A DNA stretch of 64,000 bases, from the sequence record NC_031047.1; one strand, given 5' to 3'. The translations under genes and the position numbers were made by a program. The notes under the pieces are model-generated. The model saw nothing but the letters and a program-made list of their open reading frames with translations, did no database searches and was not told where the DNA came from. Positions 12,707 to 16,862 of this stretch are shown one piece after another. Position 1 is the first letter of the stretch. Every line of letters begins with the position of its first letter. This DNA comes from Escherichia phage HY03.

Positions 12707-13180
12707 ATGTTATTGACTGGCAAATTATACAAAGAAGAAAAACAAAAATTTTATAATGCACAAAACGGTAAATGCTTAATTTGCCAACGAGAACTAAATC
12801 CTGATGTTCAAGCTAATCACCTCGACCATGACCATGAATTAAATGGACCAAAAGCAGGAAAGGTGCGTGGATTGCTTTGTAATCTCTGCAATGCCGCAGA
12901 AGGTCAAATGAAGCACAAATTTAATCGTTCTGGCTTAAAGGGACAAGGTGTTGATTATCTTGAATGGTTAGAAAATTTACTTACTTATTTAAAATCCGAT
13001 TACACCCAAAATAATATTCACCCTAACTTCGTTGGAGATAAATCAAAGGAATTTTCTCGTTTAGGAAAAGAGGAAATGATGGCTGAGATGCTTCAAAGAG
13101 GATTTGAATATAATGAATCTGACACCAAAACACAATTAATAGCTTCATTTAAGAAGCAGCTTAGAAAGAGTTTAAAATGA
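12707..13180 (+). CDS. 49: endonuclease VII (Holliday junction resolvase)
   Basis: 157 aa; zinc-binding CLICQ...CNLCN; matches recalled T4 gp49. Confidence 0.9.
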   Translation: MLLTGKLYKEEKQKFYNAQNGKCLICQRELNPDVQANHLDHDHELNGPKAGKVRGLLCNLCNAAEGQMKHKFNRSGLKGQGVDYLEWLENLLTYLKSDYTQNNIHPNFVGDKSKEFSRLGKEEMMAEMLQRGFEYNESDTKTQLIASFKKQLRKSLK

Positions 13181-13714
13181 CAATTGAAAAAGAAATTGAA
13201 GGATTGATTCATAAAACTAATAAAGACCTTTTAAACGAGAATGCTAATAAAGATTCTCGTGTTTTTCCAACTCAACGGGACCTTATGGCCGGTATTGTGT
13301 CTAAACACATTGCCAAAAATATGGTCCCGTCTTTTATTATGAAAGCGCATGAAAGCGGAATTATTCACGTGCATGATATTGATTATTCTCCTGCTCTTCC
13401 GTTTACCAATTGCTGTTTAGTCGATTTAAAGGGGATGCTTGAGAATGGATTTAAATTAGGCAATGCTCAAATTGAAACGCCTAAATCTATTGGCGTTGCT
13501 ACTGCAATTATGGCACAAATTACAGCACAAGTTGCTTCACACCAGTATGGCGGAACTACATTTGCGAATGTCGATAAAGTTCTTTCTCCTTATGTTAAAC
13601 GTACATACGCTAAACATGTTGAAGATGCAGAAAAATGGCAAATCGCTGATGCGTTGAATTATGCTCAATCTAAAACAGAAAAAGATGTATACGATGCATT
13701 CCAGGCGTATGAGT
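13177..13714 (+). CDS. nrdD: anaerobic ribonucleotide reductase NrdD, exon 1
   Basis: N-terminal 179 codons plus one nt; exon ends in U that can wobble-pair with intron guide GCUCAU. Confidence 0.75.
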
Positions 13715-13925
13715 TAATTTAATTCAGGCTCATGTAAAACCGGTCTAAACGGGGAACCTCTCTAGTAGACAATCCCGTGCTAAATGTTCTTTTGAACTAA
13801 ATGCCTAACGACTAACCGTGATGAATGTAGCGGTGTAGAATAGAAGCTAATGCTATTCGAAACGGCCGGCATCGAAAGATGAAGATATAGTCTAATCTGC
13901 ATGGCGACATGCAGCAGTCATCTTG

Positions 13926-13933
13926 TATAAATA
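13926..13933 (+). promoter_or_regulatory. T4 late promoter box TATAAATA
   Basis: exact TATAAATA 29 nt upstream of the intron ORF ATG. Confidence 0.6.
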
Positions 13934-13962
13934 AGATTATCTTATGAATACGAGGTGAAACA

Positions 13963-14733
13963 ATGAAATGGATAAAAAGACGTTGTACTAAAATAAAAGA
14001 TAAAGACGCATTTACATACTTAGTTAAGTTTTCTAATGGCGACATTTATATCGGTTATAAAAAATTTAGAACAATTAAAAACAAGCCCACAAACTGGAAA
14101 ACTTACACAACGTCATCTAAGTATATAAATGAACGCTTAAAAACTGATACACCTACTAAATGGATAATTTTAAAAACATTTGATAGTTATAAAGATGCAT
14201 TAAAACATGAAGAAGAGGTCATACGTAAATATTTTTATAGCAAAAAATGTTTAAATAAATCCATAGGCGGTAAAAAGTTTTATAAGCATCCGGATACTGA
14301 AGAACATATTCAAAAATTAAGAGATGCTCATAAGGGTAAAGTGTTATCCGAATCTCATAAAAACAATATAAAATCTTCTGTGGCTGAATATTATGCTAAA
14401 AACAGAAGATCTAAGGAACATGTGCAAAATAATATCAATAGTCGAAAAAGTAAAAAACAAGTATCGATAAAGCTTAAAAATAAAACTTTTAGAAGTTTTA
14501 AAAAAGCAGCGGAATATTTAAATTGCACTGAAAGTGAAGTCGAAACTCATCCTCTTGTTTTGAGTATTAAGACTACTATTCATAAAGTTCCTGAATATGT
14601 GGTTGTTGACGGTATTAAGTATACGTCTTATATAGAAGCAGCTAAAGCGCTAAATTTTCATCCTAGCACTATAAAAGAACGTTGCATATCTATGGACTAT
14701 CCAAATTTTGTTGTTTCATATAAACGGGCATGA
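13963..14733 (+). CDS. I-TevII: intron-encoded GIY-YIG homing endonuclease
   Basis: 256 aa; GDIYIGYKK motif; inside the nrdD intron. Confidence 0.8.
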   Translation: MKWIKRRCTKIKDKDAFTYLVKFSNGDIYIGYKKFRTIKNKPTNWKTYTTSSKYINERLKTDTPTKWIILKTFDSYKDALKHEEEVIRKYFYSKKCLNKSIGGKKFYKHPDTEEHIQKLRDAHKGKVLSESHKNNIKSSVAEYYAKNRRSKEHVQNNINSRKSKKQVSIKLKNKTFRSFKKAAEYLNCTESEVETHPLVLSIKTTIHKVPEYVVVDGIKYTSYIEAAKALNFHPSTIKERCISMDYPNFVVSYKRA

Positions 14734-14747
14734 ATTTGCGACTCATG

Positions 14748-16039
14748 CTGAATATAATGATGAAGTAAATACACTTTTCAGCTCTAATGGACAGACTCCT
14801 TTTGTAACAATTACATTTGGTACGGGAACTGACTGGACTGAACGAATGATTCAGAAAGCAATTCTGAAAAATCGTATTAAAGGTCTTGGTCGTGATGGGA
14901 TAACTCCTATTTTCCCTAAGCTTGTTATGTTTGTTGAAGAAGGTGTTAATCTTTACAAAGACGATCCGAACTATGATATTAAGCAGCTTGCTCTAGAGTG
15001 CGCAAGCAAAAGAATGTATCCTGATATTATTTCAGCTAAGAACAATAAAGCTATCACTGGTTCATCTATTCCTGTTTCTCCGATGGGATGCCGTAGTTTC
15101 TTGAGTGTATGGAAAGATTCGACTGGTAATGAAATTCTTGATGGACGTAATAATCTTGGTGTTGTAACACTGAATCTTCCTCGTATCGCATTAGATTCTT
15201 ATATTGGAACACAGTTCAATGAACAGAAATTTGTTGAATTGTTCAATGAACGAATGGATTTGTGTTTTGAAGCTTTGATGTGTAGAATTAGTTCCTTAAA
15301 AGGAGTTAAAGCTACTGTTGCTCCTATTCTTTACCAAGAAGGTGCATTCGGGGTTCGTCTTAAACCTGATGACGACATAATTGAGTTATTTAAAAACGGT
15401 AGAAGTTCAGTGTCCCTAGGATACATTGGTATTCATGAATTGAATATTCTTGTCGGTCGTGATATTGGACAGGAAATTTTAACTAAAATGAATGCCCATC
15501 TTAAACAGTGGACTGAAAGAACTGGATTTGCTTTTAGTTTATATTCGACTCCTGCTGAAAACCTTTGTTATCGCTTCTGTAAACTTGATACAGAAAAATA
15601 TGGAAGCGTAAAAGATGTTACCGATAAAGGTTGGTACACTAATAGTTTCCATGTTTCAGTAGAAGAAAATATTACTCCGTTTGAAAAGATTTCTCGTGAA
15701 GCGCCATATCATTTCATTGCGACAGGTGGTCACATTTCTTATGTTGAACTTCCTGATATGAAAAATAACTTAAAAGGTCTTGAGGCCGTATGGGATTATG
15801 CTGCACAGCATTTAGATTATTTTGGTGTTAATATGCCAGTAGATAAATGTTTTACATGTGGAAGTACCCATGAAATGACTCCTACTGAAAACGGATTTGT
15901 TTGTTCTATTTGTGGAGAAACTGATCCTAAAAAGATGAACACCATAAGAAGAACATGCGGATATCTTGGAACTCCTAGCGTTGTCCCATGGAATTTAGGT
16001 AAAATGAAAGAAATGGTAAAACGAGTAAAACATGCATAG
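14748..16039 (+). CDS. nrdD: anaerobic ribonucleotide reductase NrdD, exon 2
   Basis: begins CUGAA (pairs with intron UUCAG); C-terminal glycyl-radical motif RRTCGYLG and Cys cluster. Confidence 0.75.
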
Positions 16040-16862
16040 GTATTATATAATTTATAAAATAACAAATATAATTAATTCAAAGGAATATATCGGTGCGCAT
16101 AGCACCGATAACATAAATGACGGTTATATGGGGTCAGGAACATTGATTCGTGCCGCTTTATTAAAATATGGTAGAAAAAATTTTAATAAAGAAATTTTAC
16201 ATGTTTTTGATAATGAAAAACAAATGTATGATAAAGAAGCTGAACTCGTAACCGAAGAGTATTGTCTAAAAGAAAATACATATAATATTAAACCTGGTGG
16301 CAAAGGTGGAACTGCCTATGAACAGACGCTTGAACATCGCCGCAAAAATAGCTTAGCAAATAAAGGTAAAAAGAGAACAGCAGAAACTAAAATAGCTATT
16401 TCAAATGCTTTAAAGAAATATAAACGTACGTCAGAACATCAAGCAAACTTAAATAAAGCTGTAAGCATAGCCATGAAGCGAAAAGATGTTAGAAGTAAAT
16501 TAACTGGAGCGCGTTCTGAGAAAGATAAATTATCTATATCAAATGGTGTTAAAAAATATTACAATTCTTTGAGCGAAGAAGAACGTGAACTTCATCGCAA
16601 GCGAATTATTGAAGGTAAAAAGAATTCTCCCATGACATTGGAATCCAGACAAAAGCTTTCAAAAGCTTTAAAAGGACTTCAAGTTGGTTCAAAAAATCCA
16701 ATGTATGGAAAAATTTCTCCAACTAGCAAAACCGTTTCAGTTGACGGTATTAAATATGATTCAATTAAAAAGTGCTCAAATGCCATAAAAGTTTCTAGAC
16801 ATCTTATACTAAAACGCTGTAATTCTACTGATGAAGCTTGGAAAAATTGGATATTATTATGA
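16032..16862 (+). CDS. free-standing GIY-YIG homing endonuclease (segH-like, at the T4 mobC position)
   Basis: 276 aa; YYIIYKITNIINSKEYIGAHS motif, NUMOD-like repeats, C-terminal HTH-like segment. Confidence 0.75.
   Translation: MHRYYIIYKITNIINSKEYIGAHSTDNINDGYMGSGTLIRAALLKYGRKNFNKEILHVFDNEKQMYDKEAELVTEEYCLKENTYNIKPGGKGGTAYEQTLEHRRKNSLANKGKKRTAETKIAISNALKKYKRTSEHQANLNKAVSIAMKRKDVRSKLTGARSEKDKLSISNGVKKYYNSLSEEERELHRKRIIEGKKNSPMTLESRQKLSKALKGLQVGSKNPMYGKISPTSKTVSVDGIKYDSIKKCSNAIKVSRHLILKRCNSTDEAWKNWILL

Follow-up and report, generated by a model that had tools for sequence, protein, structure and literature searches.

A T4-type group I intron in the nrdD gene of Escherichia phage HY03, with a 3' splice site very probably at 14759/14760

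Comparison of sequences indicates that nrdD of Escherichia phage HY03 in all likelihood contains a self-splicing group I intron that belongs to the T4 nrdD/sunY type and measures 1045 nt (13715-14759). Its 3' splice site is very probably 14759/14760, with G14759 as the terminal G; an earlier note on this DNA had placed it 12 bases early, at 14747/14748, which is very probably wrong. The gene encodes the large subunit of the anaerobic ribonucleotide reductase of this T4-like phage (Tequatrovirus) and occupies positions 13177-16039 on the plus strand of the window, the 64,000-nt stretch of record NC_031047.1 that was analysed. The sequence of the intron marks it as a diverged allele of its T4 nrdD/sunY counterpart, with which it shares the insertion site (codon 180, GAGU/AUGAAG, the slash marking the junction), and the element is of a familiar, already known kind. 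Work on I-TevII and the T4 nrdD intron goes back to the 1980s; the lineage is classed in subgroup IA2, and the P9.0/P10 rules of T4 sunY and the intron variants of T-even phages are reportedly the subject of work by Michel et al. in 1990, Sandegren and Sjoberg in 2004 and Sandegren et al. in 2005.

Table 1. Positions of the exons, intron helices and control elements of nrdD in the window
Feature	Position	Strand	Basis or remarks
nrdD exon 1	13177-13714	+	codons 1-179 and base 1 of codon 180; ORF list
P1	13709-13733	+	5' exon AUGAGU 13709-13714 / guide sequence GCUCAU 13728-13733
Predicted group I intron	13715-14759	+	Rfam match; T4 intron alignment; colinearity of the spliced product
Guide-sequence extension UUCA	13723-13726	+	predicted P10 with UGAA 14761-14764 in exon 2; sequence and T4 alignment
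Ribozyme core	13740-13914	+	covariance-model alignment and window/T4 alignment
P3	13740-13745 / 13864-13869	+	
td-identical segment, P4-P5	13744-13785	+	42 nt identical to T4 td intron
P4	13749-13754 / 13773-13778	+	
P5	13759-13761 / 13767-13769	+	
P6	13779-13780 / 13803-13804	+	
P6a	13786-13789 / 13794-13797	+	
P7	13810-13814 / 13888-13892	+	
P7.1	13815-13819 / 13830-13834	+	
P7.2	13838-13843 / 13853-13858	+	
P8	13870-13873 / 13878-13881	+	
J7/9 A and U	13895-13896	+	P9.0 with A14757-U14758, beside the terminal G; family covariation
P9	13897-13903 / 13908-13914	+	
Hairpin (P9.1-like)	13918-13958	+	fold -17.3 kcal/mol, z -4.6
T4 late-promoter box TATAAATA	13926-13933	+	in the hairpin 5' arm; 29 nt before ATG 13963
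Putative autorepression operator TATGAATACGAGGTGAA	13943-13959	+	13/17 similar to the spliced homing site TATGAGTATGAAGTAAA
Homing-endonuclease gene	13963-14733	+	256 aa, I-TevII homologue
P9.2-like hairpin	14728-14748	+	GCAUGA 14728-14733 / UCAUGC 14743-14748; fold -7.6 kcal/mol
Conserved 3' linker UGAAUAUAAUG	14749-14759	+	ends in terminal G14759; directly 3' of the P9.2-like hairpin
nrdD exon 2	14760-16039	+	1280 nt, length equal to T4's

A whole-window Rfam scan at gathering thresholds with default filters gave no match. With permissive filters and a search region of 1.3 kb, RF00028 (Intron_gpI) was found over its full model (1-253) at 13679-13914, with 70.9 bits (gathering score, 50 bits) and an E value of 1.1e-17, which bears out the claim of the earlier note that a group I intron interrupts nrdD. 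P1 comprises 6 bp with a 13-nt loop and the wobble pair U13714-G13728 at the splice site; the helix is recovered by folding, and its strands, including the U-G pair, are identical in T4. The 5' splice site after U13714, also as claimed before, is homologous to T4 GAGU/UAA. Both the intron match and P1, homologous to that of T4, are more than chance. The same intron is present in 44 phage genomes with an identity of at least 98.4%; phages ELT1, F2 and JK45 carry this allele. We infer splicing, and the junction at which it would occur, from the fold signature of the intron, its conserved hairpins, its homology, the position of its insertion and the colinear spliced product.

Compensatory changes relative to T4 are found in P3 (CCGGUC with GGCCGG vs UCUGCC with GGCAGA in T4), P4, P6a, P7.1 (ACCGU with GCGGU vs UCCCU with AGGGA), P7.2 (GAAUAG with CUAUUC vs GGGUC with GACCC) and P8 (CAUC with GAUG vs CAACUC with GAGUUG). 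P7.1 and P7.2, extra helices of the T4 nrdD/sunY lineage, are present in the homologous core. The longest exact match has 42 nt with the T4 td intron but only 17 nt with that of T4 nrdD; the 42-nt segment, over P4-P5, yields 100% matches to the td introns of many phages. It suggests exchange between introns, a point of modest evolutionary interest.

Exon 1 has the length of its T4 counterpart (538 nt), and its frame continues into the intron to stop at TAA 13720-13722. Joining 13714 to 14760 produces a NrdD of 605 aa, the number also found in T4, which reads AYEYEVNTL across the junction. Because the exons differ from those of T4 by 77 synonymous and 14 non-synonymous changes, we consider them to be under purifying selection. 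In every related record examined, nrdD is annotated as two separate CDS without a join; a search of related genome records for a spliced nrdD annotation with this type of intron found none. The junction proposed here would allow re-annotation as a single 605-aa protein in 44 deposited phage genomes.

Which G ends the intron? The T4 junction GAGU/AUGAAG aligns to 14759/14760 (G14759/AUGAAG). T4 has an A at the position homologous to G14747, and therefore that position cannot be the terminal G in T4. A spliced query joined at 13714/14760 aligned in one piece, over 300/300 nt, to intronless nrdD alleles (for example GCTTATGAATATGAAGTAAATACACTT; the intronless sequence at the junction is GCGTATGAGTATGAAGTAAATACACTTTTCAGC), and 619 records hold most of the 300-nt query in one place. 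The resulting product agrees with the sequence of the T4 NrdD crystal structure 1H78. The junction of the earlier note, QAYE-S-EYNDEVNTL, is in frame as it had stated, but AYEYEVNTL is the one supported: against the peptide across 14747/14748, AYESEYNDEVNTL, both PDB NrdDs aligned, 1H78 of T4 and the bacterial 9D3X, show a 4-residue gap. Synonymous-only change begins at 14760, the codons just 3' of it (182-189) differing between T4 and the window by 7 synonymous and 0 non-synonymous changes. The 12 nt at 14748-14759 hold 3 differences from T4, which would alter 2 of 4 residues in the frame of the 14747/14748 junction; on this comparison they evolve as intron, not as exon. Related introns of Vibrio phage F96 and Salmonella phage D1-2 occupy other nrdD positions and were unusable for the junction.

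The second-step site of group I introns is set by P10 and by P9.0, the latter adjacent to the terminal G (PMC11417360). G14759 is preceded by AU, complementary to the AU of J7/9, and followed by UGAA, complementary to UUCA, with which it would form 4 bp by the usual P10 rule of group I introns. Among 17 related introns, the third base of J7/9 and the base before the terminal G form AU in 9, GC in 6 and another combination in 2. G14747/CUGAA offers a longer P10 (5 bp vs 4) and has an identical AU dinucleotide in place for P9.0; by simple pairing rules alone, G14747 would be acceptable as well. P1/P10 pairing alone can thus choose the wrong G where a near-repeat adjoins; homology and the conserved 3' module decide.

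This module consists of the P9.2-like hairpin and the linker behind it. The hairpin holds the stop codon of the endonuclease gene (14731-14733) and sequesters G14747, which pairs with C14729; the pair is U-A in T4 and G-C in a third lineage. Compensatory changes separate the stem from that of T4 (GUAGAG with CUCUAC), and each of the six pairs shows covariation among 17 introns. The motif UGAANANANNG comes immediately after the hairpin in these 17 distinct related introns, the terminal G being its 11th base, and in the IMG/VR contig L024 the last G of this linker abuts the conserved NrdD motif SMG/CRSFL. In an alignment with loops trimmed to nine bases because their lengths differ, 94.9% of cells in the module are paired, compared to 59% in shuffles. 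The 100% pairing of the hairpin is partly by construction, as the 17 family members were picked by a stem criterion; that choice touches neither the covariation of P9.0 nor how varied the pair types are. All of the pairs (8/8) change on both sides, slid registers reach only 30-50%, and a stem is present at 18 of 45 linker matches vs 4.2% at random positions. A 3'-terminal module common to many phage introns is itself of modest evolutionary interest.

Could the intron nonetheless end at G14747, as first proposed? Such an intron would measure 1033 nt (13715-14747), use a P10 of UUCAG and CUGAA, and give a 609-aa NrdD reading ...AYE-S-EYND-EVNTL. The UUCAG (13723-13727) and CUGAA (14748-14752, directly after G14747) are both present as the earlier note reported and are fully complementary, the AU before G14747 could form P9.0, the junction is in frame and the length equals the 1033 nt of T4. 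We nevertheless give this model very little credence. Equal intron length is unexpected, since the gene in the window is 12 nt longer than that of T4 (2863 vs 2851 nt) and the exon lengths are equal; the supported length is 1045 nt, the agreement is coincidence, and we discarded it as support. The T4 guide extension GUCAA cannot pair with T4 CUGAA, so that this P10 is not conserved, and GCTGAA is a common hexamer (66 occurrences in the window, with two on the plus strand inside the intron, at 14383 and 14747), the G plus CUGAA match being not more than chance. The proposed CUGAA consists of the final base of the stem and the first bases of the conserved intronic linker: G14747 and C14748 are paired in the covariation-conserved hairpin, and UGAA forms the beginning of a linker that belongs to the intron in 17 relatives located in other genes. 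The A at the homologous T4 position and the intron-like evolution of 14748-14759 also count against G14747, as does the absence of the 4-residue insertion from the intronless alleles examined and from the T4 and bacterial PDB NrdDs. The second site 12 nt downstream, AUG/AUGAA with G14759, obeys the same rules with its 4-bp P10, and 14759/14760 is the alternative that the earlier note had itself named.

It is also unlikely, if somewhat less so, that both sites are used, with 14759/14760 as the main one and G14747/CUGAA as a minor or conditional one whenever hairpin 14728-14748 has been opened, for instance by ribosomes at the endonuclease stop codon, so that some NrdD would carry four extra residues. 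Both sites read AUG/NUGAA, the upstream P10 is longer, the choice of second-step site depends on P9.0 and P10, as stated above (PMC11417360), and the hairpin, at only about -7.6 kcal/mol, overlaps the stop codon. NrdD with the insertion is, however, absent among the intronless-allele matches and the two PDB NrdDs; the upstream G arose from a compensatory change that preserves the helix, the T4 allele is unable to use the upstream site, and the family-wide spacing puts the terminal G 11 nt past the stem. A version specific to this lineage and not to T4, in which late ribosomes finishing the endonuclease open the hairpin and some upstream splicing (14747/14748) follows, strikes us as very doubtful; if true, it would amount to translation-coupled alternative splicing of a group I intron, yielding NrdD with four extra residues. 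Finally, the intron might be a decayed, non-splicing relic and nrdD a split pseudogene, as the two unjoined CDS in the related records examined and the frameshifted or deleted endonuclease genes of some relatives would allow. Phage 215Ecol030PP supplies a natural variant from which the endonuclease is deleted. We find this scarcely credible: the core, which scores well above the Rfam threshold, has preserved every helix through compensatory changes with respect to T4, selection on the exons is purifying by the counts given above, the intron is conserved to at least 98.4% in 44 genomes, and its endonuclease ORF is intact.

The preferred intron, 13715-14759, carries this ORF after P9, in its 3' extension, where the earlier note had located it. 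The ORF does end 14 nt before 14748, as was counted then, but its distance to the supported splice site is 26 nt. The encoded protein is 56% identical to T4 I-TevII over its full length (257 aligned positions, E 2e-101), and two Pfam models lie just above threshold, SegE_GIY-YIG PF19835 (27.5 bits, cut-off 25) and NUMOD1 PF07453 (25.3 bits, cut-off 22.8). Endonucleases of the I-TevII type form only two lineages in the phage collection; a search of IMG/VR for relatives returned one T4-type contig only and no third lineage.

Expression of the endonuclease gene would be controlled by the hairpin upstream of it. Within the 3' arm of the P9.1-like hairpin (13948-13958) lies the Shine-Dalgarno sequence GAGGUGA (13952-13958), RNA from 13940 onward folds as unstructured, and the T4 equivalent has a similar energy (-17.4 kcal/mol). 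The TATAAATA box, whose spacing of 29 nt from the endonuclease ATG had been given correctly, presumably functions as a late promoter, the corresponding position of phage SA20RB being annotated as one. Both the late promoter and the hairpin masking the ribosome-binding site are conserved, and the same scheme of a masked ribosome-binding site has been described for I-TevII (PMC2988022). The 17-mer TATGAATACGAGGTGAA is identical in the T4 intron and represents a putative autorepression operator, an idea taken from the same paper (PMC2988022).

How, then, might splicing, promoter use and endonuclease activity proceed? By analogy with the family, free guanosine would attack after U13714 in the P1 U-G pair. 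In the second step, the terminal G14759, positioned by P9.0 (A13895-U14758, U13896-A14757) and P10 (13723-13726 with 14761-14764), would enter the guanosine site in P7, and the exons would be joined as GAGU/AUGAAG to encode the 605-aa NrdD with AYEYEVNTL. On early read-through RNA the endonuclease gene is probably silent, its ribosome-binding site being hidden within the hairpin 13918-13958; translation probably takes place on late transcripts that begin immediately downstream of TATAAATA, inside the hairpin. The endonuclease would cut intronless nrdD alleles and drive homing.

The closest known system is the T4 nrdD (sunY) intron with I-TevII, which shares the host gene, the insertion site GAGU/AUGAAG, the P1 strands, the helix order including P7.1 and P7.2, an ORF after P9, the late-promoter box inside the hairpin that masks the ribosome-binding site, and a terminal hairpin with an 11-nt linker behind it whose last base is the terminal G. 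The T4 intron measures 1033 nt, as compared to 1045 nt here, and I-TevII has 258 aa vs 256 aa; identity is 94% for the exons but only about 68% for the intron. P10 has 4 bp here and 3 bp in T4 (UCA with UGA), P9.0 is AU with AU here but AA with UU in T4, the P4-P5 segment is td-type, unlike that of the T4 nrdD intron, and T4 is devoid of the second G/NUGAA site that is present here 12 nt upstream of 14759/14760. The T4 td intron (I-TevI) is identical over the 42 nt of P4-P5 and shares the overall subgroup and regulatory logic (PMC2988022), but resides in another host gene at another insertion site; the rest of its core is unalignable at the sequence level, and its ORF, located elsewhere in the intron, encodes I-TevI. 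Short relatives that lack an ORF, such as the 251-nt intron in nrdD of contig L024 at SMG/CRSFL, possess the same P7-J7/9-P9 sequence and the terminal hairpin with the UGAANANANNG linker ending in the terminal G, but differ in their insertion sites or genes, have no endonuclease gene and carry a different guide sequence.

Gene 49 (endonuclease VII; Pfam matches) and nrdG flank the locus at 13177-16039. The nearest public genomes are Tequatrovirus phages (ELT1, 97.9% identity across the whole stretch), and at least 80% of the stretch is covered in 62 public records; the intron itself recurs at ≥98.4% identity in 44 phage genomes. That nrdD carries a group I intron, as an earlier note had proposed, is borne out by a covariance-model match. 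An Rfam search of 13600-14900 with permissive filters matched Intron_gpI over the full model length at 13679-13914 (70.9 bits, gathering score 50, E 1.1e-17). A scan of the whole 64-kb window (1-64000) with gathering thresholds and default filters gave no match at all, yet in the short stretch the intron scores 20 bits above threshold; a whole-window scan without a match thus does not show that an intron is absent.

The core can be aligned to the T4 nrdD intron, and compensatory changes keep each helix. P1 includes a U13714-G13728 pair and is the same in T4, whose exon 1 has the homologous GAGU at its end, so the 5' splice site proposed earlier is right. All motifs named in the earlier note were found in place: AUGAGU, UUCAG, GCUCAU, G14747 followed by CUGAA, and the late-promoter-type box 29 nt upstream of the endonuclease ATG.

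Features of the nrdD locus, with T4 counterparts
Feature	Position	Window	T4
T4-like NrdD, two halves (ORF list)	13177-13722 and 14708-16039		
256-aa ORF between NrdD halves (ORF list)	13963-14733		
P1	13709-13714 / 13728-13733	AUGAGU/GCUCAU	same
UUCAG	13723-13727		
P3		CCGGUC/GGCCGG	UCUGCC/GGCAGA
P6a		GUUC/GAAC	CAGC/GCUG
P7.1		ACCGU/GCGGU	UCCCU/AGGGA
P7.2		GAAUAG/CUAUUC	GGGUC/GACCC
P8		CAUC/GAUG	CAACUC/GAGUUG
Late-promoter-type box	13926-13933	TATAAATA	
Hairpin before endonuclease ORF	13918-13958		equivalent hairpin
Putative operator	13943-13959	TATGAATACGAGGTGAA	identical
3'-terminal hairpin	14728-14733 / 14743-14748	GCAUGA/UCAUGC	GUAGAG/CUCUAC, same place
Linker	14749-14759	UGAAUAUAAUG	
SegH ORF	16032-16862		mobC at this place

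Where does the intron end? The earlier note had placed the 3' splice site at 14747/14748. As a general rule for group I introns, P9.0 beside the terminal G and P10 together set the second-step site (PMC11417360). These local pairing rules suit both G14747 and G14759, so that other evidence is needed. That evidence is consistent: T4, intronless alleles, NrdD structures, substitutions, the terminal hairpin and the intron family displace the site by 12 nt to 14759/14760, and support a length of 1045 nt instead of the 1033 nt first proposed.

Two candidate 3' splice sites
Property	G14747/CUGAA	G14759/AUGAA	T4
Intron length (nt)	1033	1045	
NrdD length (aa)	609	605	605
Junction	AYE-S-EYND-EVNTL	AYEYEVNTL	
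P10 with guide extension (bp)	5	4	3
Dinucleotide before G	AU	AU	
Homologous T4 base	A	G	

The T4 nrdD gene, annotated as a CDS in two pieces, extends over 2851 nt; joined at GAGT/ATGAAG, it loses 1033 nt and encodes a 605-aa protein with AYEYEVNTL. The window's nrdD span of 2863 nt is that of T4 plus 12 nt, and its exons equal those of T4 in length (538 and 1280 nt) only when exon 2 starts at 14760. The agreement of the first proposed intron length with that of T4 is a coincidence. Since T4 has A at the position of G14747 (…CUCUA CUGAAC…), the upstream site cannot exist there; the T4 terminal G is aligned with G14759. Intronless nrdD alleles, one of which reads GCTTATGAATATGAAGTAAATACACTT, align with 300 nt of their own to all 300 nt of a query joined at 13714/14760, without a break; in 619 records most of this query is found in one place. 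Aligned to the 609-aa product, the T4 NrdD sequence from the crystal structure (1H78) and a bacterial NrdD of 734 aa (9D3X) each leave a four-residue gap exactly at SEYN. Codon differences between T4 and window nrdD number 77 synonymous and 14 non-synonymous. Codons 182-189, directly after 14760, hold seven synonymous changes and no non-synonymous one, and the 12 nt at 14748-14759 differ from T4 at three positions, which would alter two of four residues in the frame of the upstream junction. The hexamer GCTGAA is common (66 in the window, two on the + strand inside the intron). A near-repeat, AUGCUGAA / AUGAUGAA, lies 12 nt apart within 14745-14764, with CUGAAC / AUGAAG at equal spacing in T4; its first copy is part of the conserved linker and its second is exon.

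C14748 and G14747 form the first and second pairs of the terminal hairpin (-7.6 kcal/mol); the counterpart of C14729-G14747 in T4 is U-A, and in L024, a contig whose related intron is described below, it is G-C. The P7-J7/9-P9 sequence occurs in >120 IMG/VR viral contigs. Seventeen distinct family members, which occupy a variety of genes and sites, share one build of the 3' end: a stem of 6 bp, a loop with [AG]CGA[ACG] at its end, then the linker UGAANANANNG, whose last base is the terminal G. This module was found at loci L013, L022, L024, L029, L036, L040, L042, L047, L052, L055, L061, L071, L087, L107 and L109. L024 (IMGVR_UViG_3300010279_000001, about 2235-2535) carries a 251-nt ORF-less family intron in nrdD, at a site different from that in the window; the last linker G of this intron adjoins the conserved NrdD motif SMG/CRSFL and is thus the terminal G. 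In a register-corrected alignment, 8/8 pairs of stem and P9.0 change on both sides, and 94.9% of cells are paired (59% in shuffles, 30-50% in slid registers), the stem's 100% pairing being partly built in because it served to select members. For P9.0, which played no part in the selection, the third J7/9 base and the base preceding the terminal G covary (AU 9, GC 6, other 2). Such a stem accompanies 18 of 45 linker matches and 4.2% of random positions. The position of the window's linker makes G14759 the terminal G, and the CUGAA proposed for P10 comprises the final base of the stem followed by the conserved first bases of the intronic linker.

We therefore hold, with high confidence, to an intron of 13715-14759. 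Use of both 3' sites is improbable, even though P10 is longer at the upstream one and a hairpin of modest strength covers it. The upstream junction as sole site shares that longer P10, runs against the T4, allele and family evidence, and is less probable still; a dead intron is the least probable reading of all. From 13715-14759, standard two-step group I splicing would yield the 605-aa NrdD, and the homing endonuclease would be expressed late, with intronless nrdD as its target.

The endonuclease ORF matches I-TevII, the enzyme of the T4 nrdD intron, over its full length at 56% identity, with GIY-YIG and NUMOD1 signatures both just above threshold. Only two enzyme lineages occur in the phage collection, the window type (43 records) and the T4 type (25 records). 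The Shine-Dalgarno sequence is masked by the hairpin before the ORF (-17.3 kcal/mol, z -4.6), whose 5' arm contains the promoter-type box; RNA from 13940 onward is predicted to be unstructured. A corresponding arrangement has been published for I-TevII (PMC2988022). The putative operator matches the spliced homing site at 13/17 positions in the window and 14/17 in T4, and as a sequence would fit the proposed I-TevII autorepression operator. In L003 (Escherichia phage 215Ecol030PP, 749-1227) most of the endonuclease gene is deleted, leaving a 479-nt intron, and in phages F1, FN and 236Ecol005PP the endonuclease match falls in two pieces, which suggests a frameshift. Homing-endonuclease genes commonly decay in this way.

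The ORF between nrdD and nrdG encodes SegH, a free-standing GIY-YIG homing endonuclease 97.8% identical to RB3 SegH (AY262138). Ten of the non-synonymous differences between T4 and window NrdD, out of 14 in all, cluster beside it in NrdD codons 584-605 (about 15975-16039). Within the intron, 42 nt at 13744-13785 (P4-P5) match the td intron of T4, a separate group I intron, at 100% identity, as they do the td introns in many other phages. The T4 nrdD intron departs from this stretch at 11 positions, and both flanks are of nrdD-intron type. This pattern suggests gene conversion between two introns, which would be a case of intron domain shuffling in nature.

In the public records of this intron type examined (L002, L003, L130 and others), nrdD is annotated as two independent CDS, and none carries an intron or join annotation. 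The main result is that the 3' splice site is corrected by 12 nt; the element itself is of a known kind. It occupies the insertion site of the T4 nrdD/sunY intron and is a diverged allele of that intron, with about 68% nucleotide identity in the intron, 94% in the exons and 56% between the endonucleases.
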